This document shows positions 1 to 26,134 of a stretch of DNA of 64,000 nt, one piece after another. Origin of the DNA: Candidatus Aenigmatarchaeota archaeon (GTDB lineage Archaea; Aenigmatarchaeota; Aenigmatarchaeia; CG10238-14; SCSR01). The position numbers and the translations under genes are program-made. Numbering within the stretch: position 1 is the first letter of the stretch; each line of letters starts with the position of its first letter. Under the pieces are notes generated by a model. That model was not told where the DNA came from, ran no database searches, and worked only from the letters and a program-made list of their open reading frames with translations. The stretch lies in assembly GCA_039000685.1 (NCBI GenBank), contig JAWBNW010000001.1, positions 14,655 to 78,654 of the forward strand. The letters are read 5' to 3'.

Positions 1-911
1 ATTCCTTCCTATCCCAAAATGAAAAAATCTTGGATAATTTAAGAAATGATTTGGAACAAATAGAAAAACAGATTAAAGAAAATGAAAGCAAGAAGAGGAA
101 GTATGAAATATTGTTGATACAGCTCGAAGATTTGGAAGAAAAGAAAAAAAGGAGTGAGGTGTTGAAGAGAGAAACAGAAGAAATCAAATCAAGAATGAAA
201 GAAATAGAAGCAAAACTTGAAGGCAAAGATTTGGCAAGAATGGAAGAAGCTCTCAAGTCAATCATAAGCAAAGAAAGTGAAGTAAAAACAAGGCTTCAAT
301 CTTACGATTCGTTCATTCAAGAAAAAGAATTAAGGAAAAGGGAATACGAGGAAAAGTTGAAAGATCTGGAAAAACAGAATAGAGAAGTCAAAAAACTAGA
401 GCATTTGATAAGAGATTTGGAGATTTTCAGTCTCGCCCTTCAGCAAACACAGATTGAACTGAGGAGCAATTTTGTCGAGGCAGTGAATTACACCATGAAC
501 AAGCTTTGGAGCACTCTATACCCATACCATGATTTCGTCTCTGTTAGGTTGAATGCAGAAGAAGGAGACTATGTTTTGCAGTTGCAAGGAAGGGATGGTA
601 ATTGGATGAATGTTGAAGGTATAGCTTCCGGTGGTGAAAGGAGCATAGCTTGCCTTGCTTTGAGAATAGCTTTTGCCCTCGTGCTCGCTCCAACCATGAG
701 AATAATCTTTTTGGACGAGCCAAGTCACAATTTGGATCAAGTCTCTCTAAAAGTCTTTGCAACAACTTTGAAAGAAAAAATCAGCGAGTTCATCGATCAG
801 GTTTTCTTGATAACACATCAATCGGAGCTAGAAGATGCTTTGACAGGCAATGGCTACCTATTAGAAAGAGATAAGGAAAAAGACGGTGTGACAAAGGTTG
901 TTGCCTTATAA
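1..911 (+). CDS. rad50: Rad50 (SMC-like DNA repair ATPase), C-terminal portion; 5' end lies outside the window. The frame is open back to nt 3, and the track start at 30 is only an internal TTG.
   Basis: Long K/E-rich coiled coil. ABC signature SGGER (ASGGERSIACLALRIAF). Walker B IIFLDEPSHNLD. H-loop LITHQSE near the C-terminus. This is the typical Rad50/SbcC C-terminal head domain. Confidence 0.8.
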   Translation, partial: SFLSQNEKILDNLRNDLEQIEKQIKENESKKRKYEILLIQLEDLEEKKKRSEVLKRETEEIKSRMKEIEAKLEGKDLARMEEALKSIISKESEVKTRLQSYDSFIQEKELRKREYEEKLKDLEKQNREVKKLEHLIRDLEIFSLALQQTQIELRSNFVEAVNYTMNKLWSTLYPYHDFVSVRLNAEEGDYVLQLQGRDGNWMNVEGIASGGERSIACLALRIAFALVLAPTMRIIFLDEPSHNLDQVSLKVFATTLKEKISEFIDQVFLITHQSELEDALTGNGYLLERDKEKDGVTKVVAL

Positions 912-912
912 A

Positions 913-1611
913 TCATCTGAACAATTTTTCAGTCGGGTAAACAATTATTCCTTTACCAGATTTTATTTCAAATGGGTGCGAATCTGTGTCATGGTCCGTT
1001 GCTCTCATCTTTCTTATGGTTATCCCTCTTGGATATCCAGAAGAATAAGATAGCAATATTATACCATCTGAAGTGAATTCTTCTATTCCAAAAGATGAAA
1101 TAGAGTTGGAGCCTTCTGGAATTTCACAAGTGAGCAGAGCAGTACAATTCAATTTTTTGAGCAGTTTATCCAACTCAAGCAAGCTTCTTCTGATCTCCAA
1201 AGGTCTCTCGAAGAAAAGGCTTATAACTGTTATTGGGTCAATGACTATCCTCTCTGCCCCAACTTTTTCAACATTGTTTTCAATCAAATTCTTGAACTTT
1301 TCAAAATCATAGATGTCTGACTTTATGAGGAGAAGCTTTCCTTCTTTCTCTAGTTTTTCCAAAGGCCAGCCAAAAGTCAGGTTTATATATTTTTTTATCC
1401 TCTCGACATTTTCTTCTAAAGATATATACACACCTTTCTCTTTCTTTTCCAAAACACCATTGACCAAAAACTGCAAAGAGAGTATAGTCTTGCCTGATCC
1501 AGGACTGCCAGAAACAAGAATTGTAGAACCTTTAGGAAAACCGCCTTTAAGCAAAGCATCTAAACCTTTTATGCCAGAAGGAGTTCTTTCTATGGCATCA
1601 ACTTCTTTCAT
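913..1611 (-). CDS. KaiC-like RecA-superfamily ATPase (single KaiC domain, about 230 aa)
   Basis: GIKGLDALLKGGFPKGSTILVSGSPGSGKTILSLQFL...GVYISLEE matches the KaiC/RadA-paralog N-terminal pattern. Walker A GSPGSGKT. Walker B-like RIVIDPIT. Confidence 0.65.
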   Translation of the reverse strand: MKEVDAIERTPSGIKGLDALLKGGFPKGSTILVSGSPGSGKTILSLQFLVNGVLEKKEKGVYISLEENVERIKKYINLTFGWPLEKLEKEGKLLLIKSDIYDFEKFKNLIENNVEKVGAERIVIDPITVISLFFERPLEIRRSLLELDKLLKKLNCTALLTCEIPEGSNSISSFGIEEFTSDGIILLSYSSGYPRGITIRKMRATDHDTDSHPFEIKSGKGIIVYPTEKLFR

Positions 1612-1646
1612 AAATTAAATTTATTTTCAATAGTATAAGAATTAAT

Positions 1647-2234
1647 ATGGACAAATCGATAGAAACCATAAGAGGAGAGAAAACCCTCAAAGAATTTATT
1701 AAAAAACTCGAGCCAAAGAGTGTAGTTCTCTTTATCATCGATGCAAAGAAATACCATAAAATACATCCAAAACTTTTGCAGACCATAATAAAAGAAAAAT
1801 GTTTTGCAGGAATTTACATCACGATAAACAAGCCTTACAGTGCTTTGATCAAATACCTCAAAGAAAACAAAATAAACACGGATAACATATTTTTCATCGA
1901 TGCTATATCAAAGAGTGTTGGAGGGGAGATAAAAATGACAAAAGACTGTTTATTCATTCCTTCTCCCTCCCAACTAACTGATTTGGCAATAGCTTTAACT
2001 CAAGCTTTAGAAAGCATGGAACATAAGGAAAACAAATTCATTTTTCTCGATTCCCTTTCAACTTTATTAATCTATAACTCCTTTGAAGTTGCAGCCAAGT
2101 TCGTCCATTTCATAATCTCTAGGCTTAGACTGTTTGGTCTTGTCGGGATGATAATCTCAATAGAAAAACAAATAGATGAGAGAATGTTAAATATTTTAAT
2201 AGAGATGTGTGATAGGGTGGTTGAAGTCAAATGA
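1647..2234 (+). CDS. RecA/KaiC-fold-like protein lacking a P-loop (probably an inactive ATPase-like domain). It is divergently paired with the KaiC-like gene.
   Basis: Size and hydrophobic periodicity resemble KaiC/RecA-fold proteins. It has a hhhhD Walker B-like FIFLDSLSTLL. No GxxxxGK[ST] is present. The start is 35 nt from the divergent 913..1611 gene. Confidence 0.3.
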   Translation: MDKSIETIRGEKTLKEFIKKLEPKSVVLFIIDAKKYHKIHPKLLQTIIKEKCFAGIYITINKPYSALIKYLKENKINTDNIFFIDAISKSVGGEIKMTKDCLFIPSPSQLTDLAIALTQALESMEHKENKFIFLDSLSTLLIYNSFEVAAKFVHFIISRLRLFGLVGMIISIEKQIDERMLNILIEMCDRVVEVK

Positions 2235-2581
2235 TCGAAATCTTCTTTCAAATCTTAAGCTTGCTGAGCTCTGTTTTAGCTTTCATAACAGTAATTATGT
2301 TTGCTCGATCTAACATCAAGTTCACAAAAGGCGAATTGCAAGAAATAATCAATTATTTTGTTTGGGGAACTATATTCATGTTCGGTGCAATGGCGGCTCA
2401 ACTTCAAGTTGACCTCTTTAATTTGTCTGGCACACCAATAGATATGATAAAATATCTTCTATTGTTGATTGGTTTTTCATATTACTTATTAGCTTCCAAC
2501 CGAATTTACAAGATGTCAAAAGTCCTAGGGTTTGCTTCAGAAGAAATGCCAAAGAAACTGAAAAAAGTCCTTAAATCTTAA
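2231..2581 (+). CDS. Small polytopic membrane protein, start overlapping the upstream stop (ATGA)
   Basis: Three hydrophobic segments. Translationally coupled to the upstream gene. Confidence 0.4.
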   Translation: MIEIFFQILSLLSSVLAFITVIMFARSNIKFTKGELQEIINYFVWGTIFMFGAMAAQLQVDLFNLSGTPIDMIKYLLLLIGFSYYLLASNRIYKMSKVLGFASEEMPKKLKKVLKS

Positions 2582-2606
2582 TTTCAAGAAAAGTTTAATT
2601 TAAATT

Positions 2607-3017
2607 ATGAAGGCCCAAGTTGCTCTTGAATATTTAATGATAATTTCTTTTGCTTTGATGGTCTTGTTGCCTTACGCTCTTTATCTTCAAACAGCTTCCC
2701 AAAATTTAAAAGAAGACAACAATTTAGCCATAGCTTCCAATTCTCTGAAAAAAATAGGTCAGACAGCAGACTGGGTTTTTTCTCAAGGTGAGCCTGCCAA
2801 AATTACAATCTTGGTTCAAATTCCTGCTAACATTGAAGAAATTTCTTTTGACGGCAAAATGATGAACTGGAAAGTTAGGACTAGCGCTGGTCTATCAGAT
2901 ATTTACTACATTTCTTCGGCTAACTTGACAGGAAGCTTGCCAACAACTCCAGGCTATTACAATTTGCTGATTCAAGCTATCGGAAATGGGGTGAACATAA
3001 GTGTTAGCCCAAGTTAG
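2607..3017 (+). CDS. Archaeal type IV pilin-like protein (class III signal peptide)
   Basis: The N-terminus MKAQVALEYLMIISFALMVLLP has a short charged leader, Q/A, a conserved E, then a hydrophobic helix. Sequons follow (NLTGS). Confidence 0.55.
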   Translation: MKAQVALEYLMIISFALMVLLPYALYLQTASQNLKEDNNLAIASNSLKKIGQTADWVFSQGEPAKITILVQIPANIEEISFDGKMMNWKVRTSAGLSDIYYISSANLTGSLPTTPGYYNLLIQAIGNGVNISVSPS

Positions 3018-3390
3018 CATAGAATTTATTTCTTTGCTCTCATTCCTTTTCATTTTTTTATTCTTCACAATTTATCACAGTTCCAATCTTTACATTCAGA
3101 CAAACGCAGCAAGGATCTTGAAAGATGCACAAACAGTAAGCGATCAAATTGCTTCTGAAATAAACTTAGCCCTTAGAGCTGGGAGTGGCTACTCAAGAAC
3201 TTTCAATGTCCCAAATAAAATTTCCAATGCAATAGATTACAACATAACAGTAAAAGATTATCTTGTGATTTTGACTTGGAACGGTGGCTCCACACAATCT
3301 ATAATCTTGACAAGAAATATCAGTGGAGAAATATTGAAAGGTGAGAACTTGATAAGAAATTTGGATGGTGTGATTTATGCTAACCAATAA
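3001..3390 (+). CDS. Pilin-like protein (class III signal peptide-like N-terminus)
   Basis: MLAQVSIEFISLLSFLFIFLFF; overlaps the upstream gene by 17 nt. Confidence 0.45.
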   Translation: MLAQVSIEFISLLSFLFIFLFFTIYHSSNLYIQTNAARILKDAQTVSDQIASEINLALRAGSGYSRTFNVPNKISNAIDYNITVKDYLVILTWNGGSTQSIILTRNISGEILKGENLIRNLDGVIYANQ

Positions 3391-3859
3391 AGCCCAAGCC
3401 TTCACTTATGATTTTTTCATAGCTTTAGGTATTTTTTTTGTCGTGATGATTTTGGTGATGGGAAATTGGTACTTTTCAGCCGTTCAAACACAAGAAACCA
3501 TGGAAAAAAATTTAGCCTATAATATTCTACTTTCTGCATCTCAAGTTTGGTTTAAAGAAGGATTTCCAAAATATTGGAATGTTGACAATATAGTTGAGCT
3601 AGGTTTGTCCAATGACGGAAAGATAAATGAAACCAAAATGGAAATGCTGAACAATTCGATCGGATATCCCAAAGCAACTCTTTTGCTCAATCTTGGCAAT
3701 TTCAACTTGTGCTATGAAATTTATGACAAAACAGGAAATTTAATTTTTCGCTTTCCTCAAAATGCAGATCTTAATTCAGCAAAAAACATCTACAAGATTG
3801 AAAGAATTGGGATATTGAATGAGCAGCCTGTGAAAGTGAGGACTTTGATATGGAACTGA
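3377..3859 (+). CDS. Pilin-like protein
   Basis: MLTNKAQAFTYDFFIALGIFFVVMILV N-terminus; overlaps the upstream gene by 14 nt. Confidence 0.45.
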   Translation: MLTNKAQAFTYDFFIALGIFFVVMILVMGNWYFSAVQTQETMEKNLAYNILLSASQVWFKEGFPKYWNVDNIVELGLSNDGKINETKMEMLNNSIGYPKATLLLNLGNFNLCYEIYDKTGNLIFRFPQNADLNSAKNIYKIERIGILNEQPVKVRTLIWN

Positions 3860-5784
3860 AAGGTTTAGCTTTCACTGCTGACATTTTGATAGGTTTGACC
3901 TTAGCCATATCATTAATTCCTCTTTTCTATGTTGGAACAGAATCAAGCCATCCAGAAATTTCTTTTCAATCTTTAAGCTACCAAGCAAATGATTTGATAG
4001 AAGTGCTTGCAAATTTAAAAACAAGCTCTTTTTCCAACACACCAACAATCTCAAAACTCTTATCAGAGAAAATAATTTCAGAGACTGAACTGAACAAAAC
4101 TTTGCTAGACTTGATAGGAACTTTCTGGTATTCTGGTAATCAAAGCATCGCTTCAAATATAACAAAAGAAGTCCTGGAAGGTTTGACAGAAAAATGCTTC
4201 AGTCTCCAAACCCAGAATGAAACAATCTATTCATCTTGCTCATCTAATCCAAAAACAGTTTCTGTTGCTTACAGGTTGGAATCTGGCTATGAAATCGGAA
4301 AGCCGGTTTCTGGTTATGTGGCAAGGGCATGGGCAACAAAAGTGAGAAAAAACACAACCCAAATAATTATTTTCTATCCAGAAGGCTCAGGCTGGACTGC
4401 TCAAAGACTTGAAATCACGAAAAACTTTGCCTTACCAACAAACATAACAATCTACAACGCAACTTTGTATGTTTCAATCCATTTCGGAACTTCCAAATCC
4501 CAAGCCCAATTCGAGCAGCTTAAAATCAATGGTGTTCAAAAAAAGAATGATGTGAATTGGCTTTACTTGCAAGAAGAAGCTTTTGGTTGGGAAATTACTA
4601 CAGCAGCCTATGGTGTTGTTGACGTGACGAATGAAATTCAAGCAGGAAACAATTCAATTTACTTGGTGATAGGAACACCAAACTACCATTCTCACATTCA
4701 TCCAGGCATGAGGCTTATAGTGACTTACAGTTTGAGTCAAGAACTTTCAACAGGTAACAAAAGCTTCAAGAAGAGATATTATTTCGACAATGTGGTGGGG
4801 AGAACAGGTGCTTGGTCGATGGTCTCTTTCTATATCCCAGAAAATGCAAAAAATGCCACAGCTAGGCTTCATCTGAAAGCTTTAGAGGTCGATGATACTA
4901 AAGATTTGTTTGGAAGAAATTCCAGCGATGTGATAATTTATTTCAATTCAGACGACATCTTTTATAAAGACGGATATTGTTCTTCTCAAAATTGCTATCC
5001 TTCATGCAGTATTTCAGGTCTTTACTATAGAAACTGTCAAAAAGTTGGAGTGATGAATCCTGAGCTCTCATTAGATCTCACAAGCAATTTGACTAAAGGA
5101 ACAAATGTGATTTCAGTATATCTGAACAATTATGGTGACATTCACTGGGGAGATCAAAAGGCGATAATTTATTCAGATCTTTTGAATGACCCAGAAGGAT
5201 CTTCTTATGTTGAAGTCTCTTATGAAATGGAAGAACCAACTTTCAATTACGGTGAGATCGATATAACGAAAGAAATGTTGTTTGGAGGCTCTGCCAGCAA
5301 CCCAAAAACTTTCAATTTCACTCTAAGCCAAAATCAAATGAATGTTATAGAAGCTTTTGTCCACATAGCCCAGGGCTTCAGCAGCATGGTTAATGCTTCC
5401 ATAAACAACTTTTGGATCTTCACTTCACCTTCTATACGTGTCGTTCCTGAAAATGTTTATGTTTATCCAAACAAGCTCATCATCGGAACAAATTCAATCA
5501 AGCTTGTGGACTTTCAGCAAGGTGGCTCGATTTCAGGAACAAACTACATCTTGCCGTGGTCTTCTTTCGAATACACCTACCTCGTGAGAGGTTTGGTTGG
5601 CTATGGAAGTGTGTTCAATTCTTCTCAGCTTGCAATAGAAGATGCAAGACAAAGACTTCTTGCTCAAATGGGTGGCGAGGGAATAAAGCCGGAAGAGATG
5701 CAAGTCGACTCTCAAGCAGTTCAGGGCATAAGATGGCTTTGGGGTCCAAGCCTGTTCAAAATCTTGGTGTGGGAGAGAGAATGA
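3850..5784 (+). CDS. Large (644 aa) pilin-like or pilus-associated surface protein, a candidate tip adhesin
   Basis: N-terminus MELKGLAFTADILIGLTLAISLIP is a pilin-type hydrophobic helix. Many N-x-S/T sequons. Cys pairs sit in the middle. Overlaps the upstream gene by 10 nt. Confidence 0.45.
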   Translation: MELKGLAFTADILIGLTLAISLIPLFYVGTESSHPEISFQSLSYQANDLIEVLANLKTSSFSNTPTISKLLSEKIISETELNKTLLDLIGTFWYSGNQSIASNITKEVLEGLTEKCFSLQTQNETIYSSCSSNPKTVSVAYRLESGYEIGKPVSGYVARAWATKVRKNTTQIIIFYPEGSGWTAQRLEITKNFALPTNITIYNATLYVSIHFGTSKSQAQFEQLKINGVQKKNDVNWLYLQEEAFGWEITTAAYGVVDVTNEIQAGNNSIYLVIGTPNYHSHIHPGMRLIVTYSLSQELSTGNKSFKKRYYFDNVVGRTGAWSMVSFYIPENAKNATARLHLKALEVDDTKDLFGRNSSDVIIYFNSDDIFYKDGYCSSQNCYPSCSISGLYYRNCQKVGVMNPELSLDLTSNLTKGTNVISVYLNNYGDIHWGDQKAIIYSDLLNDPEGSSYVEVSYEMEEPTFNYGEIDITKEMLFGGSASNPKTFNFTLSQNQMNVIEAFVHIAQGFSSMVNASINNFWIFTSPSIRVVPENVYVYPNKLIIGTNSIKLVDFQQGGSISGTNYILPWSSFEYTYLVRGLVGYGSVFNSSQLAIEDARQRLLAQMGGEGIKPEEMQVDSQAVQGIRWLWGPSLFKILVWERE

Positions 5785-6746
5785 GAGGAATATTCTTCAG
5801 TTTGATGATAATTTTTCTAATGGCCTGCCTACTCATGTTTCTTTCTGTTCAGAGGTCCATGTTATCTTTTTACTCTTCTCAAAGAGCAATTGAAAATAGG
5901 ATAGAATCTATGCTGAACTTTTATGAGAGTGTGATTTATGACTCAAGAAAATCTATGGAAATCATGGCACAAAGGGCAGCTTGTTCAGCAATAAACTATG
6001 TGGTAACCACAGGCTCTCCCTTACATTCTTCAAACGAGTCTATAGCAGAGCTCATATTGGAAGGAACAATTAATTCTGAGATCCAAGGCCTGATGGAAGG
6101 ATCTACTACCAAAGATTGGGAAGAGAGCATAGAATATTTGGGAAGTCTTCAAGGATTTGGGGCCGAAGTCAATATCAAAGACTTATTGATAGAGCTCGAA
6201 GACAGTTACCATCTTTCCATCTCTTACACTATTCTCCTAGACCTTTATGATGATAATGTCAAGACAAACCTTACAAAAAGCTCAAGAGAAAAAATAATCG
6301 TAAGCATAGAAAATATGGAAGATCCTCTCTATCCTTTGAACACTTTAGGCAGAATAGTCAATGTCATAAGACCGAGCCCACATTGGCTCAACTACTCTAG
6401 CGAAGACACTACAAATTTGAAGGACGATTTAGACAATTCTTACTATCATCCCAGCTTATATGGAGCAAGTTTTCTGGATAGGCTTGAAGGCAAGTTCTTC
6501 GTTCAAGAAAAGTACTCCAAACCAAACCCAATCGGGTTGGAAAGTTTTGTCAACAAGGACAAAATCCTCAGCGCAGGCTTGCCGATAGATACTTACGCTA
6601 CAAACATAGATTATCTTTACTTCTCAAAAAGTGGTGTGGTCGCTTATTCTATTTTCAACATGCCTTCTAATTTTAGATTAGACAATGAGACTAGTCTTGA
6701 AGGGAAGACCCACCTTCAAATATACAATGTCACGGTGATTGAATGA
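5781..6746 (+). CDS. Membrane-anchored pilin-like or secreted protein (321 aa). The start at 5781 overlaps the upstream stop (ATGA).
   Basis: The track ORF 5556..6746 has an implausible N-terminal extension. The in-frame ATG at 5781 gives MRGIFFSLMIIFLMACLLMF, a signal-anchor helix, and overlaps the 3850..5784 stop. Confidence 0.4.
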   Translation: MRGIFFSLMIIFLMACLLMFLSVQRSMLSFYSSQRAIENRIESMLNFYESVIYDSRKSMEIMAQRAACSAINYVVTTGSPLHSSNESIAELILEGTINSEIQGLMEGSTTKDWEESIEYLGSLQGFGAEVNIKDLLIELEDSYHLSISYTILLDLYDDNVKTNLTKSSREKIIVSIENMEDPLYPLNTLGRIVNVIRPSPHWLNYSSEDTTNLKDDLDNSYYHPSLYGASFLDRLEGKFFVQEKYSKPNPIGLESFVNKDKILSAGLPIDTYATNIDYLYFSKSGVVAYSIFNMPSNFRLDNETSLEGKTHLQIYNVTVIE

Positions 6747-7480
6747 AATTAAAATACAAAATTTCACTCACAGCCCTGATGTTAATAATATTAGGTTCCC
6801 TAATCTTGGGTCCAAAAGAGTTTAAGCAAGCCCTTTTTCAATATTTTGAGGGAGGCAAAGGAGAAGAAAGCACTTCAGTTCAAAATTTAACTCAAAGTCA
6901 AACTGGTCAAACGAGCGAGACTAATTACTCTACAAACCCACCCCAAGAAGGTGGAGGAGGTGCTGGGGAAACAACCAAAGAAGAAGGACAAGCAGCAAAA
7001 GCAATAACCCTTGAAATCACAGACATTTGTTCAGGAAAGCTTGACCTATTCACCATTTCAGAAGGTGCTACTAAATGCTTGAACAGAAAATATCCGTATC
7101 AAATAATCCTTGAAAAAAATTCAACCCATTTGACAACAAGTTTTTATGGCTTAAGCGGGTTTGAGGAAAGCTATGAGCTGAACGAAACTATTCTACTATT
7201 CTTCATCTTTGCCGAGGATGTGGCGAGCGTGAGCCATGAGATTCAATCTTTCAGTTTAGAAGGAAGTCAAGATTTCAGTTTAGGTCAATATTATCTTCAC
7301 ACAATCTGGGAAAGAGATGCTGCTGGAAACTTGGTGATCTCAAAGATGATAGCAATTTTGCCTTTGCAAGTAAACGGCAATATTATGAGCAGTGATTGGA
7401 AAGAGCTTAAATTCTATCTGAATATACCTAACAAAACTTATTATTTGGGCAACCTTTGGGTCTTAGTGAAAGAAAAATAA
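6743..7480 (+). CDS. Secreted or membrane-anchored protein with a Q/T/G-rich linker, last gene of the plus-strand pilin-like operon
   Basis: N-terminal TM MKLKYKISLTALMLIILGSLILG. Low-complexity segment QSQTGQTSETNYSTNPPQEGGGGAGETT. ATGA overlap with the upstream gene. Confidence 0.4.
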   Translation: MKLKYKISLTALMLIILGSLILGPKEFKQALFQYFEGGKGEESTSVQNLTQSQTGQTSETNYSTNPPQEGGGGAGETTKEEGQAAKAITLEITDICSGKLDLFTISEGATKCLNRKYPYQIILEKNSTHLTTSFYGLSGFEESYELNETILLFFIFAEDVASVSHEIQSFSLEGSQDFSLGQYYLHTIWERDAAGNLVISKMIAILPLQVNGNIMSSDWKELKFYLNIPNKTYYLGNLWVLVKEK

Positions 7481-7491
7481 AAGAAAAAAAG
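7481..7491 (-). terminator. Oligo-T tract (CTTTTTTTCTT on the minus strand) immediately after the pilin stop codon
   Basis: Archaeal intrinsic terminators are T-runs. Here T7 follows the TAG. Confidence 0.35.
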
Positions 7492-7902
7492 CTAAGACGC
7501 TCCATGTAAAGTTGCATTAAGACTGCTCTCTATACCGCTAGCAACATCTATGAAGGTTACTTTCACTTCTACATCTCCAGCAAAGCAACCACTGCAAGGT
7601 ATGGAAAGTCTTGATTGTGGTTTTCCATTTAGAGGTACATCAAAGGTGTTTGAACCTTTTGAAGTATCAACTCGTGTAACATTTATTTCTCTTGGTCCTA
7701 CAATCACTGAAAGGGTATTAGCACCATGATAGTCATACGTAATTGCTGCGCCAGGCGGGAAACATGGACTGCAAGGCCCACCGATACCACCACCAGGCAA
7801 TCTGAAAATACCCATTGCGTACAAAGCTGCAACCACTGCAATTACTATCAAGATTGCCCATCCGTATGTCATCAAAAACTCAAGAGCCGCTTGTGCTTTC
7901 AT
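7492..7902 (-). CDS. Archaeal type IV pilin (probable major pilin)
   Basis: MKAQAALEFLMTYGWAILIVIAVVAAL is a textbook archaeal pilin N-terminal domain (class III signal peptide). Short 136 aa protein with a Gly/Pro/Cys-rich tail. It has its own putative promoter. Confidence 0.65.
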   Translation of the reverse strand: MKAQAALEFLMTYGWAILIVIAVVAALYAMGIFRLPGGGIGGPCSPCFPPGAAITYDYHGANTLSVIVGPREINVTRVDTSKGSNTFDVPLNGKPQSRLSIPCSGCFAGDVEVKVTFIDVASGIESSLNATLHGAS

Positions 7903-7940
7903 AATTATATTTTATTTTCCCGCCTTTTAAAGCTATAGAG
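7903..7940 (-). promoter_or_regulatory. Putative archaeal BRE/TATA promoter for the major pilin gene
   Basis: Minus-strand sequence ...CTATAGCTTTAAAAGGCGGGAAAATAAAATATAATT-ATG. The TATA-like TTTAAAA sits about 25-30 nt upstream of the start, probably on a leaderless mRNA. Confidence 0.3.
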
Positions 7941-8928
7941 TTGCTGCTGGGACAAGGAAGCCTATGAGGCCTGAGAGAGCAAGTCTTGCCATGAAATAGA
8001 TTGTTAGGTTGATTGCCAAGAGCAAGGGGATGTATTTCAAACCAGCTTTTTCCTTTCCCTCTTGCAACAAACCTATGAGCAAGCTGCCAAAAATCGATGA
8101 AAAAATCAAGGTTAGCAGACAATAAGCTCTGATGAAATCTGAAGAAACTTTAACTATACCAAGCTTCAAGCTTCCCATGGTCATGTAGCTTGCAGCTTCT
8201 TCTATTCTCAGCTTGCTTCCGATTGCACTCATGGTCTCAACCAAATAGGAAGAAAACGCAAATAGGACAGGGGAGGCAAAACCAACGGCTATGAAGATGA
8301 AAATGGCATACATTCCAACTTGTGCTGCTATCTCTTTTTTCAAGAGCTTGAGATCCCTTATGTCTTCAGCTGTTTGTTCGAGCAAACTTGCTATCTCCCC
8401 ACCTTTTCTCATACCTTCAACTATCAAGTTGAATGTCCTGTTTATTATCCTCGACCTAATTTTCTTTCCTAAAGAAAGCAAAGCATCTTCCAAGGCTTCA
8501 CCAGCTATTGCTTTTGTGGCAGCCATCTTAATCTCTTTTTCCAAAACACCAAACTCCGGTCTAGCAGAATAAAGCAAAGCCTTGTCTGGAGTTAAACCTG
8601 AGCGAATGTTTGCTGCCATTAGCTGCAGGGCATCAGGAAGGACAGATTCAGCAAAGCTTCCTCTCTTATCACCTATCAATATTAAAATAAGATCAATTAT
8701 CAATTGAATTCCAATGAAAACCAGGGGAATCAATAGCAGGATTACCCAACTAAAAACAAAAACAAGGGGAAGCAACAAGAATGAAAAGGCAAGAGAGTAA
8801 AGAAAAGATAAGGACAAGAATTTTTCCATTCTTATCTCAATCCCAGCATACTCTAAATTCTGCTCTAACCATTTCACGTACTTCTTCGGATAAATCCACC
8901 TTATTCTTCTATAAGCTCTCTCTATCAT
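7933..8928 (-). CDS. FlaJ/TadC-like pilus platform membrane protein (second half of a split FlaJ)
   Basis: T2SS-F-like topology: TM pair, cytoplasmic helical domain, TM. Overlaps the upstream half by 4 nt. Confidence 0.6.
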   Translation of the reverse strand: MIERAYRRIRWIYPKKYVKWLEQNLEYAGIEIRMEKFLSLSFLYSLAFSFLLLPLVFVFSWVILLLIPLVFIGIQLIIDLILILIGDKRGSFAESVLPDALQLMAANIRSGLTPDKALLYSARPEFGVLEKEIKMAATKAIAGEALEDALLSLGKKIRSRIINRTFNLIVEGMRKGGEIASLLEQTAEDIRDLKLLKKEIAAQVGMYAIFIFIAVGFASPVLFAFSSYLVETMSAIGSKLRIEEAASYMTMGSLKLGIVKVSSDFIRAYCLLTLIFSSIFGSLLIGLLQEGKEKAGLKYIPLLLAINLTIYFMARLALSGLIGFLVPAATL

Positions 8929-9812
8929 ACTTCCACACTCGGCCTCCTGCTCTTAACCATTCCTATGAGCATGACTTGAAAAACAACAACAACAAACAAA
9001 ATCAAAAAGAATATTGTCTCTGGAACTTGTATGCCAGCAAAAGTAGAGAAAATTATGAGAAAAGTTATTCCAAGAGTAGGTAGAATTACTGTCAACATCA
9101 AGTACATTAGAGCTAGTGGACTGAGTTGAGAGCCATACTTCCTTATCTTCACCTTCTGCTCTTCTGAAAGATTTTGGGCTATGATGTTAAGAGTATTCCC
9201 AACATCACCCCCCGCCCTCAAGCTGTTGACTATCTGCCAAATAACCCTCTTGAAACCAACATTCGGAACCCTAAAAGCAAGCTCTTCCAGAGCTTGTGTC
9301 TCCTCTTTTCCAGTTGCTATTTCTTTCACACATTTCTCAAATTCTTCCGAGACAGAACCATAATTTCCTTTCGAGACAGAAACCAAGGAATCAAAAATAG
9401 AAACTCCGGACTTGATTTGAATGAACAAATGTCTTATGGCAAACAAAAGATTTTTTTCCACATCTCTATCTTTCCTTGAAAGCAAGAGGCTTGGATAAAA
9501 GCTGATGTAATTGAAGACAACTACAGAGATCAAAAGAGAAAAGATGAATGAAAGCAAGGCGAGATTTTTCCCGGCTACCAACCCAAGAATCGTGAAAATT
9601 GAGAAAATCAAGAAAAACCAAAAGATAGAAGAGAATATTGCTATTGCTGAATATTCCCTGTCTTTCAAGTTTATTTCAGCTTGAATCAACTTCTGGGCAA
9701 GGAAAGGATTCAGCTTGACAAGTCTGCTCGATAGAAATAAAAAAGGTCTTGAAAGTTTCAAAACCTTTTGAACTGGAAATGGGACAAATGGTATTCTCTT
9801 CATCCAAACCAA
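8925..9812 (-). CDS. FlaJ/TadB-like pilus platform membrane protein (first half)
   Basis: GspF/TadB-like cytoplasmic domain ...LFAIRHLFIQIKSGVSIFDSL...ALEELAFRVPN...IVNSLRAGGDVGNTL, flanked by TM helices. Confidence 0.6.
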   Translation of the reverse strand: MVWMKRIPFVPFPVQKVLKLSRPFLFLSSRLVKLNPFLAQKLIQAEINLKDREYSAIAIFSSIFWFFLIFSIFTILGLVAGKNLALLSFIFSLLISVVVFNYISFYPSLLLSRKDRDVEKNLLFAIRHLFIQIKSGVSIFDSLVSVSKGNYGSVSEEFEKCVKEIATGKEETQALEELAFRVPNVGFKRVIWQIVNSLRAGGDVGNTLNIIAQNLSEEQKVKIRKYGSQLSPLALMYLMLTVILPTLGITFLIIFSTFAGIQVPETIFFLILFVVVVFQVMLIGMVKSRRPSVEV

Positions 9813-11311
9813 CTTTTTATCACTTTATCCACATTTTCTCTGTTTTCAACAGCTTTGACCAATTTCTCAGGTGAAGAATAATAAATTGCTATGAGCCTTC
9901 CAAGCTTGTTCAAATCTTTAACTTGATTTTCAACAAACCACTTCAATATCCCCACTTTTTCATCCATATTTTCTTTGATCTCCTGTTCAGTCATACCTGT
10001 GTGCATACCAATCTCTTCCACAATTCTCAAGCTATCATTCTCCCTCTCAATTTCATCTTTCACAGGCTTCCATCTGTACAAAGTGTTTAACTGTGGGCCT
10101 TGTTTCTCACTTCCTGGCAAAATTTCGCTCAGTTGGAACATCCTCCTTATCCCAAGCCTTCTATCCCTGAAAGCAACTGCAAGGAGATGTAAAGCTTCTA
10201 TCACACTTTCAGGCACGTTGATTGGCGGATTTATTAATCTTTTCAAGGCTTGTTCTGCTGTATCAGCATGCAAGGTAGCATAAACTGAATGGCCAGTGTG
10301 CATGGCTTCAAAAAGGACTTCTGCCTCTCTTGCTCTTCTTATCTCACCAACTATTATCCTGTCAGGTCTCATCCTCAAGCTGTTAACGAGCAAGCTGAGC
10401 ATGCTAACTTCTCCCAAACCTTCAGGATTTGGTTCCCTTGTTGTCAAAGGCACCCAATGCAGAAAATCAGCCAACTGTAATTCACGCGTGTCTTCAATAG
10501 AAACTACTCTTTGGTTTGGTGGAATGAAGCTCATGAAGACATTCAGCAAAGAAGTTTTTCCGCTTGCTGTACCACCAGCGACAATCATGTTCATCTCGTA
10601 CTGAATAGCAAGCCAAATTAAAGCAGCTACTTCATAATTCAAAGTTTTGTTTTCTATGAAATCTACTATCGTCCAAGGCGACCTTCTGAATTTTCTTATT
10701 GTTATTGTATTTCCATGAGTTGAAATGGGGAACAAAGTTGCATTAACTCTGTCTCCAGTCGGCAAGTGAGCATCCATGAGTGGGTTGAGAAGCGTGATTT
10801 GTCTGCCAACTTTTCTCCCTATATTATTGGCATAGTTCAATATCTCGCTTTCTTGCTCGATTTGTACATTGGTCTTGAGCCAACCATGCTTCTTGTGATA
10901 AACCCAAACCGGTTCTTTAGAGCTGTTGATGACGACTTCTTCCAGGTTTGGGTCTGCAAGCAAGAACTCAATCTTTCCCAATCCAAACATCTCTTGCATC
11001 AAAATCCCGATCAAATACTTTTGAGTACTCTCATTCACGAAAGGCATCTCTTTCTTGAAAATTTCCATCCCCTTTTCAAAGAATTTTCTCTTCAAATTTT
11101 CTATTGAAGTTACATCCATGAGTTCAGTTGGCTTGATTGGAATTTCGGTCAAGAGCATTGTCCTGATTTTTTCCAGAAGGACAGAAGTACCTGCAGCTAT
11201 TTCTGGAAGTTTGAGCTCATAGATGAGAACAAAATCAGAAGTTTTTTTTATTGAGACGGAAGCTTCTATGCCTTCAGAACTAACTTTATAGCTTTCAGAC
11301 TTTTCATTCAT
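9800..11311 (-). CDS. FlaI/PilB/VirB11-family secretion ATPase (archaeal pilus assembly ATPase)
   Basis: Walker A MIVAGGTASGKTSLLN. Asp box and Walker B ...RVVSIEDTRELQL. His box AMHTGHSVYATLHAD. About 500 aa. Confidence 0.8.
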   Translation of the reverse strand: MNEKSESYKVSSEGIEASVSIKKTSDFVLIYELKLPEIAAGTSVLLEKIRTMLLTEIPIKPTELMDVTSIENLKRKFFEKGMEIFKKEMPFVNESTQKYLIGILMQEMFGLGKIEFLLADPNLEEVVINSSKEPVWVYHKKHGWLKTNVQIEQESEILNYANNIGRKVGRQITLLNPLMDAHLPTGDRVNATLFPISTHGNTITIRKFRRSPWTIVDFIENKTLNYEVAALIWLAIQYEMNMIVAGGTASGKTSLLNVFMSFIPPNQRVVSIEDTRELQLADFLHWVPLTTREPNPEGLGEVSMLSLLVNSLRMRPDRIIVGEIRRAREAEVLFEAMHTGHSVYATLHADTAEQALKRLINPPINVPESVIEALHLLAVAFRDRRLGIRRMFQLSEILPGSEKQGPQLNTLYRWKPVKDEIERENDSLRIVEEIGMHTGMTEQEIKENMDEKVGILKWFVENQVKDLNKLGRLIAIYYSSPEKLVKAVENRENVDKVIKSWFG

Positions 11312-11339: not shown

Positions 11340-12113
11340 TCATTCTTGTTTTTTCATTTTCACAACAGGGCTTCCGATAGCAGGATAATTTATTTCAACT
11401 ATGCCATGCTCTTCAAGAATTTTTGCCCAATTTTCAACCAAATTCTCTGGAGTGTTCAAAAGTTTGGAAAGTTTTTGGAGTTCAACCGGACCTTCTTCCA
11501 AGATTTTCAACATTTCATCAATTTTTGTTGAGACAGTTTCCTTTATCTCTTGCTTTGGAGCCCATTTCAGCAAATCGGTTCTTGTTATTATTCCAACAAG
11601 CCTACCTTTTTTATCAAGGACAAGAAGCCTTTTGATGTTGTATTTTTCCATTTTCTTTTTTGCTTCTTCCACACTTTTATCTTCACCGATGCAAATCGGT
11701 TTTTTCATGATGTCAGCAACTATCGTGTTTTTGAGAACCTCTTTATCCTTTTCTTCTATTTCTTCCAAATTATTCTTCTTAACAATCTTCAAGATGTCAG
11801 TCTTGCTTATCTCACCTATGAAAAATCCTTTATCGAGAACAGGAGCACCAGAAATTTTTTTATTTTGGAAAATTTCGGCGACTTTATTCAAGCCCATATG
11901 GGGGTCGACAGAGATTATGTTTTTCGTCATCAACTCTGAAACCAAAATCTTTTTCTTCTCAGGCTTCACCTTTCTTTTAATTTTCACCATTCTTTTAATC
12001 TTTTTTGTTCTCTTTTTCACCTTCTTCTCAACTTTTATTTTTTTGGTCTTTATTTTTCTCTTGAAAAAACTGAAGAGCCAGTCTAGCACCATAATTATTA
12101 TCTGAAAAATCAA
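11340..12113 (-). CDS. Membrane-anchored CBS-pair domain protein with a poly-lysine linker and a C-terminal wHTH-like tail
   Basis: N-terminal TM. Linker KRKIKTKKIKVEKKVKKRTKKIKRMVKIKRKVKPEKKK. Two CBS motifs (LMTKNIISV...GAPVLD; IMKKPICIG...LLVLDKKGRLVGIITRTDLL). Helical C-terminus. Confidence 0.55.
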   Translation of the reverse strand: MIFQIIIMVLDWLFSFFKRKIKTKKIKVEKKVKKRTKKIKRMVKIKRKVKPEKKKILVSELMTKNIISVDPHMGLNKVAEIFQNKKISGAPVLDKGFFIGEISKTDILKIVKKNNLEEIEEKDKEVLKNTIVADIMKKPICIGEDKSVEEAKKKMEKYNIKRLLVLDKKGRLVGIITRTDLLKWAPKQEIKETVSTKIDEMLKILEEGPVELQKLSKLLNTPENLVENWAKILEEHGIVEINYPAIGSPVVKMKKQE

Positions 12114-23954: not shown

Positions 23955-24338
23955 ATGAACATAATGTTTTGGAAGAAAGAAAAGCCAAAAGAAAAAAAAC
24001 AAATAAGAGAAGAAACCAAAACACTACTAAAAACTGAATGCGAAAAATCTAACAGACCAGATTTATACCAATATCTTCAGTATGTACCCTATTTTCCTGA
24101 TAAATGGAAGAAAGGTCAAGAAACTTCTTATTTTCACTCAGGTTGTCTCACGTTGTATGAGGGTCTTAGGTTAGAAGCACAAAATAATCCAGAAGCAATA
24201 GAAAAGTTTGAGAAGGCAAAACAAGAATTAGGAGAAAGTAGACAAAAAGAGCCAATATACGCTAGAGATGCAGAAGAAATTATTAAAAATTTTGATGATG
24301 TTATAAAAATTCTGAGAAGACTTTGGAAAATAGATTAA
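23955..24338 (+). CDS. Hypothetical protein
   Basis: ORF only. Confidence 0.3.
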   Translation: MNIMFWKKEKPKEKKQIREETKTLLKTECEKSNRPDLYQYLQYVPYFPDKWKKGQETSYFHSGCLTLYEGLRLEAQNNPEAIEKFEKAKQELGESRQKEPIYARDAEEIIKNFDDVIKILRRLWKID

Positions 24339-26134
24339 ATCAAGGCCTTAATCATCTTCTTATTCACCAAAGCTCTGATAATCTCTTTCCCGATTTCTGA
24401 TGCTTTATTGACTTTTATGCTTGCTTTTTTGCCTATGGTGGCAGAAAATAAAAACTCATCTTCAACATAGAAATTTGCAACCTTCCCAACAAGCTTTTTA
24501 TTGAATTTAAACTCTATGCTATTTCCACTTTCGTTGATTTCAAACTCAACTTCTTTTCCTATCGCAGGAACTCTTGGTTCAACTTCTATATGCAAACCAA
24601 GCTTTTTCTCTATTGCCGAGATAGTATTGCCTTCTTTCCCAATCAACCTTGCAATCACATCATTCTCAACCCTTACTATAGCTTGAGTATCAGAAACAAG
24701 CTCAACTTGGGCTCTTGGGTCAAATCTTTCTATCTCTTGCTTTATTCTCTCAGCAGCCAATTTTTTCATTGGAGATACTTCGCTTGCTGTGACAGGGACG
24801 ATTATATTCTCTTCGCCAAAGGTGTAAATTTCATACTCAAGCTTTCCTGTCTCAAAATCTTTTATCTCAACCAATGGTCTTGCCAAGTCAGCTTCCGTCA
24901 TTCCCGTGGGCACTCTTACAGTCAAATTCAACTCGTAAACTTTTTTTACTTCACCCTCTTTTATGAAGATCACCGTGTCAATTATATGTGGGATCATCCC
25001 AAGCTCAGTTCTCATTATAAATCTCTGAATTGCATCTATTGCGTTGCTAGCGTGAACAACACCTATCATCCCAACTCCAGCCAAGCGCATGTCAGAAAAA
25101 ATCTCAAAATCTTTCGTCTTCCTAACTTCGTCATAAACTGAATAATCTGGTCTCACCAGCAGCAAGATATCGGCAGTTTTCTCAAAATCACCTTCCAAAG
25201 GCCCATATTGAGTGATTTCAGGACCAACTTGCAAGTCTTTCGGACTTTCCAAAGTCTTCACTATCTTTCCCTGCTCTTTGTAAAATTCTGCTATGCTGCT
25301 TGCAAAAGTTGTCTTTCCAGAACCTGGAGGACCCGCAATCAAAATTCCTTCTGCCTTTTCCTTCAACCTCTTCATCAACTTTTCAGAAAGCTTGTAATCT
25401 TCAAGATTTAGTTTAACTATCGGTCTCACAATCGTGAGCTCAAGACCATCAGAAAAAGGAGGTCTTGCTATTGCTATTCTATAATCACCGAGTTGCAAGA
25501 CCATTGCTCCAGCTCGGGCTATTTCAACATGACCTTCTTCACTCACCCTCGCCGCTTCCAAAATTTCCTTGATTATTTCTTCTATTTCTTCTGCACTCAA
25601 TTTCTCCTCTCTGATCTTCAAAAGCTCAAATTTCCCAGGCTTCCCTCTTTTCGCAAGTGGTACTACATCTTCTTTCAAATGAACGCTTAAAGTGTCTGGA
25701 GTAAAATACTTCTCAAATTCCAAACCAGTTGTTTTTATTTCTTGTGCTATGTATTCGACAGGAATCCCCTCAGCTTCTGCAACTAATGCTTGAACATAAT
25801 CAGCGGTAAGCAACTTTCCATTTTCAGCTTTTGCCACATCCCTTATCAAGGCATCTATTCTTCCTGCTTTTGCCAGCTTTATTTCTTCTAAGCTTGGTCT
25901 TTCTCCCGTAAACCTTATCTTTATTTTTTTCTCTTCACAAACCTTCCTTATCTTCTTCAATTCATCAAGACCAACAAAACCAACGTCCCTTCCTTTTGAT
26001 GCTTGTGCTTGCAGTTCATCTAAAACAGCTAGAGGTATCACTAGCTCGAAATCTTTCAGCTCATCTCTTTCAAGCATTCGAGTCAAATTTCCATGAATTA
26101 TCACTGAAGTATCGGGAACAATTCTATTTACCAT
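24335..26134 (-). CDS. PIN-domain / PhoH-like ATPase / KH-domain protein (archaeal PilT-N-terminus-type ATPase)
   Basis: N-terminal PIN (IVPDTSVIIHG...D). P-loop ILIAGPPGSGKTTFASSIA. C-terminal KH-like domain (IARLIGKEGNTISAIEKKLGL). Confidence 0.7.
   Translation of the reverse strand: MVNRIVPDTSVIIHGNLTRMLERDELKDFELVIPLAVLDELQAQASKGRDVGFVGLDELKKIRKVCEEKKIKIRFTGERPSLEEIKLAKAGRIDALIRDVAKAENGKLLTADYVQALVAEAEGIPVEYIAQEIKTTGLEFEKYFTPDTLSVHLKEDVVPLAKRGKPGKFELLKIREEKLSAEEIEEIIKEILEAARVSEEGHVEIARAGAMVLQLGDYRIAIARPPFSDGLELTIVRPIVKLNLEDYKLSEKLMKRLKEKAEGILIAGPPGSGKTTFASSIAEFYKEQGKIVKTLESPKDLQVGPEITQYGPLEGDFEKTADILLLVRPDYSVYDEVRKTKDFEIFSDMRLAGVGMIGVVHASNAIDAIQRFIMRTELGMIPHIIDTVIFIKEGEVKKVYELNLTVRVPTGMTEADLARPLVEIKDFETGKLEYEIYTFGEENIIVPVTASEVSPMKKLAAERIKQEIERFDPRAQVELVSDTQAIVRVENDVIARLIGKEGNTISAIEKKLGLHIEVEPRVPAIGKEVEFEINESGNSIEFKFNKKLVGKVANFYVEDEFLFSATIGKKASIKVNKASEIGKEIIRALVNKKMIKALI

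Follow-up and report, generated by a model that had tools for sequence, protein, structure and literature searches.

Organization of the KaiC/iKaiC locus

We analysed a 64,000-nucleotide stretch of contig JAWBNW010000001.1 from a Candidatus Aenigmatarchaeota archaeon, hereafter called the window. Near its left end, two divergent open reading frames (ORFs) border a type IV pilus (T4P) locus. ORF1 (913..1611, minus strand, ATG at 1609..1611) encodes a single-domain KaiC-like ATPase of 232 residues. ORF2 (1647..2234, plus strand, ATG at 1647) encodes a 195-residue inactivated KaiC homologue (iKaiC) of the DUF7504 family, and its end overlaps the gene of a small membrane protein. The three proteins probably make up a KaiC-centred regulatory module built into the T4P locus.

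The start codons of ORF1 and ORF2 are separated by an A+T-rich spacer of 35 bp (1612..1646). Two TATA-like hexamers, TTTATT (1620..1625) and TATAAG (1634..1639), can be read directly from the spacer sequence, one for each start codon, located ~22-27 nt upstream. Both hexamers are retained in L001, a 95%-identical locus found in another Aenigmatarchaeota metagenome-assembled genome, and the bases between them are changed. The position and the retention of the hexamers suggest that the spacer contains back-to-back promoters giving rise to leaderless mRNAs. The spacers between the two genes measure 8-44 bp in relatives. The window is archaeal, with a uniform G+C content of ~36%, and one of its proteins is 100% identical to a protein from a Candidatus Aenigmatarchaeota metagenome-assembled genome at NCBI. 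A chance ORF pattern is ruled out, as homologues of either protein number in the hundreds to thousands.

The first-pass annotation of this DNA had described a divergent pair transcribed from a 35-bp region and lying just upstream of a pilin-like operon. The ORF coordinates and the spacer agree with this description. The adjacency to the operon is also correct, but ORF2 is not merely upstream of the operon; it is its first gene.

ORF1 is an intact KaiC protein

ORF1 matches the Pfam KaiC family (PF06745) over residues 11-228 with 215 bits (cut-off 26.6; E value 1e-63), and KaiC and PH0186 structures in the PDB with E values ranging from 1e-63 to 1e-43. All motifs expected in a functional protein are intact, including the Walker A and B motifs already recognised in the first-pass annotation. 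The Walker A motif GSPGSGKT is encoded at 1486..1509, the catalytic Glu pair, embedded in LEEN, at 1408..1419, the Walker B motif RIVIDP at 1234..1251 and the Lys/Arg finger KMR (K-x-R) at 997..1014. These catalytic motifs are invariant across the aligned KaiCs adjoining iKaiC genes (n=16). A full-length match above the gathering score and a complete set of motifs place ORF1 in the KaiC family, and the protein is predicted to be an active ATPase or autokinase.

Models of more specific families fit less well. The ArlH/FlaH model NF052589, which has an equivalog cut-off of 215 bits, scores 42.7 bits on ORF1 and 12.8 bits (E value 0.07) on ORF2. Archaellin or ArlF/G families were not detected among the proteins of the locus scanned with Pfam and NCBIfam. 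The circadian KaiC models TIGR02655 and PRK09302 score 168 and 117 bits on ORF1, as opposed to cut-offs of 408 and 546, and the two RadB equivalog models 28.6 and 26.5 bits, as opposed to cut-offs of 278 and 172. Moreover, a circadian KaiC is expected to feature two tandem KaiC domains (~500 residues), whereas ORF1 has a single one in its 232 residues. By these profile scores, ORF1 is a generic single-domain KaiC, and is neither an ArlH/FlaH orthologue, a two-domain circadian KaiC nor a RadB protein. The KaiC-like ATPase proposed in the first-pass annotation is upheld as a member of the KaiC family, not as one of the ArlH type.

ORF2 is a KaiC-fold protein with a dismantled active site

ORF2 matches DUF7504 (Pfam PF24336) with 38.8 bits (gathering score 27), in an alignment that includes only residues 104-194, and DUF7504 is the precomputed annotation of most ORF2 homologues. 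The DUF835 score (Pfam PF05763) is 30.7 bits, just under the gathering score of 33.1, and the match to Pfam KaiC similarly falls just below the cut-off. The GxxxxGK[ST] motif is not present. PDB searches returned only noise when carried out with the single ORF2 sequence, and a weak KaiC match (E value 6e-4) when carried out with the profile of the ORF2 family.

A fold search with Foldseek on an AlphaFold2 model was required to settle the fold. The model has a predicted local distance difference test score (pLDDT) of 87 and a predicted template modelling score (pTM) of 0.85. Foldseek matched it to FlaH, PH0284, KaiC, SSO2452 and PH0250, all at a probability of 1.0, with template modelling (TM) scores reaching 0.70 (PH0284); FlaH/ArlH (4wia, 4yds) is the top structural match. 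Using hhalign, a 34-sequence alignment of the ORF2 family was matched to the adjacent KaiCs with a probability of 94% and an E value of 1e-7. The first-pass annotation had suspected a RecA/KaiC fold without a P-loop in 1647..2234 and had proposed structure prediction as a check; a RecA-like fold is present in the model, and the suspicion holds.

The alignments reveal what has been lost. In the hhalign alignment, the position of the former P-loop is occupied by IDAKKYHK (1737..1760), and Asn-Lys stands in place of the Glu pair, within the conserved NKPY motif (1824..1838), in which P63 is invariant and N61 almost invariant across the family. The Walker B-like segment FIFLDSLSTL (2037..2066) retains its Asp, D135, which is invariant in the family. 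The C-terminal end of ORF2 (2205..2231) lies where KaiC runs on into the Lys/Arg finger; in a global alignment, ORF2 stops at the strand preceding the K-x-R finger. Homology to the KaiC fold, combined with the loss of the motifs for ATP binding and hydrolysis, qualifies ORF2 as an iKaiC. Judging from the model, ORF2 is a RecA/KaiC-fold pseudo-ATPase of the DUF7504 family. It is predicted to be unable either to bind or hydrolyse ATP in the usual way or to supply an adjacent subunit with an arginine finger. The combination of a catalytic protein and a pseudo-ATPase put forward in the first-pass annotation matches the motifs, intact in ORF1 and lost in ORF2.

The ORF2 family is large. Among 1.84 billion cluster representatives, its profile retrieved 3,789 at E<=1e-3, a number that falls to 807 at E<=1e-30, corresponding to a DUF7504 family of ~3,800 clusters at 50% identity. 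Nearly all members are stand-alone proteins of 165-235 residues. Rare fusions were also identified, in which the iKaiC is preceded by KaiB-like and V4R domains (KaiB-like-V4R-iKaiC), is followed by WD40 repeats, is found in tandem or carries two membrane helices in a region fused to its N-terminus. These fusions support a role as a signalling adaptor and tethering at the membrane. DUF7504 is mentioned in none of the literature searched.

A small membrane protein is the closest partner of the iKaiC

Relatives of ORF2 were collected by scanning one genome per species. Of the 201 relatives found, 80 loci were analysed by ORF calling and jackhmmer searches; adjacency of the membrane protein was counted over 79 loci, and co-occurrence with pilus genes over the 44 loci with 3 kb or more on either side.

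The closest partner of the iKaiC is a small membrane protein of 116 residues (2231..2581, plus strand), which had been overlooked in the first-pass annotation. The two genes overlap by 4 bp (ATGA). The protein features three hydrophobic helices (2234..2302, 2345..2404 and 2444..2497), a conserved cytoplasmic motif with the consensus G-K/E-x-F-G-F, which reads LGF here (2516..2539), and a Lys-rich tail (2540..2578). The three-helix topology was read from a 62-member alignment; a simple hydropathy counter overcounts the helices. Pfam and NCBIfam contain no family for this protein, and a homology search with its sequence retrieved only close Aenigmatarchaeota relatives. A wider family was recovered by jackhmmer over the loci, and its members adjoin the iKaiC in 68 of the 79 loci.

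Some lineages have two copies of the membrane partner, just as Woese/Nanoarchaeota have a duplicated KaiC. Two tandem copies precede the iKaiC in a Methanosarcinaceae locus (L060, 9281..10552), and two copies follow it in an Iainarchaeota-like locus (L007, 9995..11186).

The surrounding pilus locus

The iKaiC gene is the first of eight plus-strand genes (1647..7480) with intergenic gaps ranging from -17 to +25 bp. Downstream of the membrane protein, the operon encodes three pilin-like proteins (2607..3017, 3001..3390 and 3377..3859) and a 644-residue protein (3850..5784) that carries a class III signal peptide and matches no Pfam family. This large protein, possibly a minor pilin or an adhesin, is conserved among Aenigmatarchaeota loci and in a single locus from Woesearchaeota (L037). 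The last two genes of the operon are located at 5781..6746, following the 644-residue gene, and at 6743..7480. For the former, the mechanically called ORF (5556..6746) starts with the GTG at 5556. The ATG at 5781 (MRGIFF..., class III-like) is the likelier start, as it overlaps the preceding stop by 4 bp and matches the 321-residue gene of L081, a related Aenigmatarchaeota locus.

Convergent to this operon is a conserved minus-strand gene encoding a pilin with a class III signal peptide (MKAQAALEFLMTYGWAIL...; 7492..7902), which is also found in relatives. The assembly machinery is encoded next to it on the same strand. Two genes (7933..8928 and 8925..9812) encode half-size platform proteins of the TadB/TadC/FlaJ type, which match Pfam T2SSF with E values of 1e-14 and 8e-20, respectively, and weakly match the NCBIfam ArlJ and UpsF models. 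A FlaI/PilB-type assembly ATPase of 503 residues (9800..11311, minus strand) matches Pfam T2SSE with an E value of 3e-34 and the NCBIfam FlaI model with 297 bits, under the cut-off of 550. This is the only pilus-type T2SSE ATPase in the locus. Four proteins encoded within 2607..7902 carry class III signal peptides according to a simple rule. The presence of T2SSE and T2SSF proteins along with class III signal peptides marks the region as an archaeal T4P locus.

The operon for the ATPase and the platform proteins is headed by a gene encoding a CBS-pair protein (11340..12113, minus strand; Pfam CBS, E value 4e-31). This protein has a basic N-terminal hydrophobic segment and a C-terminal end resembling a helix-turn-helix (HTH), and its L081 orthologue shows faint matches to HTH_5/TrmB. 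A homologue adjoins FlaI in 25 of the loci. The CBS protein is a candidate regulator of the pilus genes that would act in transcription or as a ligand sensor.

Three other regions of the window were recorded. The first gene (30..911, plus strand), cut by the window start, encodes a coiled coil, a signature motif and a Walker B motif, the C-terminal part of a Rad50/SMC-type ATPase, and is convergent with the KaiC gene. Apart from the FlaI/PilB-type ATPase, the window has a single T2SSE-like match, a 599-residue protein combining PIN, PilT/T2SSE-like ATPase and KH domains (24335..26134, minus strand); since its gene does not adjoin pilus genes, a function in retraction is unlikely. The rule for class III signal peptides also picked a SpoIIM-family membrane protein (Pfam PF01944; 43201..43992, plus strand), probably a false positive.

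Conservation of the trio across genomes

One or two KaiC genes are located at most 1.6 kb from the iKaiC gene in 38 loci, and are upstream and divergent in 27 of these. In the 44-locus set, T2SSE, T2SSF or pilin-family genes were found in 20 of the 27 loci with an adjacent KaiC gene, and in only 2 of the 17 loci lacking one (Fisher p 1e-4, with the caveat that loci are not phylogenetically independent). The first-pass annotation had suggested examining whether the pair is conserved next to pilin operons. The KaiC and its P-loop-less partner indeed recur beside T2SSE, T2SSF or pilin genes in several DPANN lineages; the remaining 7 of the 27 loci have no pilus gene in the sequence available. One of these seven, L018, has a pair of class III-like ORFs at a distance of 4 kb.

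The full set of operon genes (2607..7480) is kept in L001, L002 and L081. In L081, the iKaiC of which is 68% identical to ORF2, the whole 15-gene locus is kept; an adenylate kinase gene replaces Rad50 at the left flank, and KaiC still accompanies the pilus locus. KaiC is divergent from the iKaiC in Aenigmatarchaeota and Woese/Nanoarchaeota. In L086 and L087, which come from divergent metagenomic lineages and encode iKaiCs 27-28% identical to ORF2, codirectional and overlapping genes are arranged in the order T2SSE-T2SSF-T2SSF-small gene-KaiC (one or two copies)-iKaiC. In L088 (Micrarchaeota), the iKaiC gene is flanked by a T2SSF gene and a gene for a 242-residue protein (T2SSF-iKaiC-242 residues), with KaiC alongside. 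The linkage to pilus genes survives rearrangement, and gene order varies between Aenigmatarchaeota, Woese/Nanoarchaeota, Micrarchaeota and the divergent lineages.

Gene context follows the clades of the iKaiC tree. Five loci labelled as 'uncultured Methanosarcinales archaeon' (L011, L020, L025, L026 and L033) display KaiC-KaiC / iKaiC-membrane protein / T2SSF-T2SSF-T2SSE synteny of the Woese/Nanoarchaeota type. Their labels are probably wrong, since their iKaiCs cluster inside the Woese/Nanoarchaeota clade.

Proposed function of the trio

To our knowledge, archaea have no PilT-type retraction ATPase, and for this reason the way in which archaeal T4P are switched on, off or towards disassembly is largely unknown. 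DPANN pili are thought to mediate host-cell contact. The trio recurs beside pilus genes in many DPANN archaea and most likely regulates the pilus machine. Control of pilus assembly is suggested by synteny, together with the analogies to ArlH and CirA discussed below, while a role in retraction, which the first-pass annotation had also considered, is speculation.

In the mechanism we envisage, the membrane protein, translationally coupled to the iKaiC, would tether it at the membrane via the cytoplasmic FGF motif and the basic tail. KaiC would dock on the iKaiC, as a pseudo-protomer or adaptor, in a manner dependent on the nucleotide or phosphorylation state of KaiC. The resulting complex would gate the FlaI-like ATPase and the TadC-like platform, as ArlH gates ArlI. 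Alternatively, the complex could feed back on the expression of the pilin operon, as CirA does for the arl genes.

Several observations weigh against this regulatory role. Pairs composed of the iKaiC and the membrane protein, with neither KaiC nor T4P genes within 10 kb, occur in several lineages. Such lone pairs are found among housekeeping genes in Iainarchaeota-like genomes, in Methanosarcinales (where two membrane-protein genes precede the iKaiC gene), in Methanocellales and in others. Likewise, no recognisable T4P core gene was found in the sequence examined of the seven KaiC-adjacent loci mentioned above. Taken together, these loci indicate that the module is not an obligatory pilus component; it is self-contained and is often, yet not always, embedded in pilus loci. 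In addition, adjacency is weaker evidence in DPANN genomes, which are compact. As for the transcriptional output, any effect would be indirect, since all three proteins lack a DNA-binding domain.

The strongest competitor, still clearly less likely than a regulatory module, is a structural role, in which the trio would belong to the pilus motor as accessory components and would not be a switch. An ArlH-like ring of iKaiC would sit beneath the FlaI-like hexamer, the membrane protein would be an ArlX-like anchor, both would be needed for assembly, and KaiC would act as a chaperone or loader. In favour of this role, the iKaiC model finds its best structural match in FlaH/ArlH, and the iKaiC gene either heads the pilin operon or directly follows T2SSF (L088). 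In the archaellum, ArlH and the membrane-anchored ArlX scaffold ArlI (PMC8978795). However, ArlH function requires ATP binding (PMC8978795), and the P-loop of the iKaiC is lost; the iKaiC and membrane protein pair is widespread away from T4P genes, and the NCBIfam ArlH model matches ORF2 at an E value of just 0.07.

Somewhat less probable again is a general KaiC signalling hub, consisting of a membrane sensor or adaptor that serves other processes, in which case adjacency to pilus genes would be synteny inherited in small genomes. Lone pairs among housekeeping genes (L060, L007, L083 and L085), triads without T4P neighbours (L004, L018 and L048) and gene contexts that track clades in the iKaiC tree all fit such a hub, as do the KaiB-like/V4R and WD40 fusions, which are not pilus-related. 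In contrast, linkage to T2SSE and T2SSF recurs, in differing orders and orientations, in lineages with iKaiCs about 28-45% identical, and the iKaiC shares an operon with pilin or platform genes. Inherited synteny alone hardly explains a linkage maintained in differing gene orders among lineages with such diverged iKaiCs.

ORF1 might conceivably be a recombination paralogue of the RadB/aRadC type that works with Rad50, which would assign the pair to DNA repair, but this is very improbable. The gene upstream encodes a Rad50/SMC-type end, and ORF1 matches SSO2452, a KaiC-like RadA paralogue, with an E value of 1e-23, and RadB and RadA models weakly. Against this, ORF1 scores 168 bits on KaiC and 17-29 bits on RadA/RadB models, and the Rad50 gene and ORF1 are convergent rather than co-transcribed. 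Adjacency to Rad50 is limited to the window and L001, and this reading was dropped because the neighbour is not conserved in L081, which has adenylate kinase instead. Least credible of all is an anti-virus defence or mobile-element module sitting by chance beside pilus genes, a reading dropped after a PADLOC check in which ORF1 weakly matched mad8 at the level of the P-loop (18.9 bits) and the iKaiC, membrane and CBS proteins had no matches, G+C content being uniform and the position in a chromosomal pilus locus stable across lineages.

Within the regulatory module that we favour, a bolder and rather doubtful possibility is that KaiC and the iKaiC form a 'split KaiC', either a hetero-oligomer or a stacked double ring, which the three-helix protein would hold at the membrane. 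A slow cycle of ATP hydrolysis or autophosphorylation would then time the switching of the FlaI-like ATPase between extension and disassembly. If so, the PilT-less pili of host-dependent DPANN cells would possess a built-in timer for attachment and release. The members of the trio are small, conserved and expressible, which makes them suitable for complex prediction as well as for assays of binding and ATPase activity. DUF7504, an unstudied family, gains a first functional context.

Comparison with known systems

ORF1 shares its fold and catalytic motifs with cyanobacterial KaiC (CI-CII), which works with KaiB, and the iKaiC family includes the KaiB-like-V4R-iKaiC fusion. Unlike its cyanobacterial counterpart, ORF1 has no tandem duplication, and neither kaiA nor kaiB is present in the locus.

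CirA of Haloferax volcanii is a KaiC-like protein encoded divergently beside arlI/arlJ. It represses the arl genes, and its deletion de-represses them, resulting in hypermotility (PMC10983859). Both CirA and ORF1 are KaiC-like ATPases encoded divergently beside genes for a filament machine. In contrast, CirA belongs to a haloarchaeal archaellum locus, and neither an iKaiC nor a membrane partner has been reported for it.

Similar to the iKaiC, ArlH (FlaH) has a single-domain KaiC/RecA fold, and its gene accompanies those of a FlaI-type ATPase and a FlaJ-type platform. ArlH binds ArlI in a state-dependent manner and is released upon autophosphorylation (PMC8978795). The two differ in that ArlH keeps Walker A, whereas the iKaiC lacks the P-loop, the Glu pair and the C-terminal finger segment. 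The loci also differ, as the one described here features pilins, and no archaellins or ArlF/G were detected among its proteins by the family scans.

iKaiC domains (DUF835 and MEDS) were defined in 2017 by Makarova, Galperin and Koonin, as cited in PMC5847659, which describes them as KaiC-derived signalling modules that have a dead ATPase site and are often fused to REC or PAS domains. ORF2 likewise derives from KaiC and has a dead site, but it is a stand-alone protein whose partners at the pilus locus, a membrane protein and an active KaiC, are encoded by separate genes. Systems of this kind are known; the variant seen here, a conserved trio that includes a membrane partner with the FGF motif, appears not to have been described before, although the 2017 paper may list it.

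Parallels are also found in the KaiC families known to be strongly associated with archaeal T4P loci. These are predicted regulators, the second component of which is mostly unknown (PMC4858521; Makarova, Koonin and Albers 2016), and a 2022 study noted that pilus clusters of DPANN archaea can contain two copies of kaiC (PMC9563170). As with the KaiCs of arCOG01171, arCOG01174 and arCOG01175, ORF1 is a single-domain KaiC encoded beside or inside a T4P operon. What sets the present locus apart is a defined partner pair, the DUF7504 iKaiC and the three-helix membrane protein, which is consistently present.

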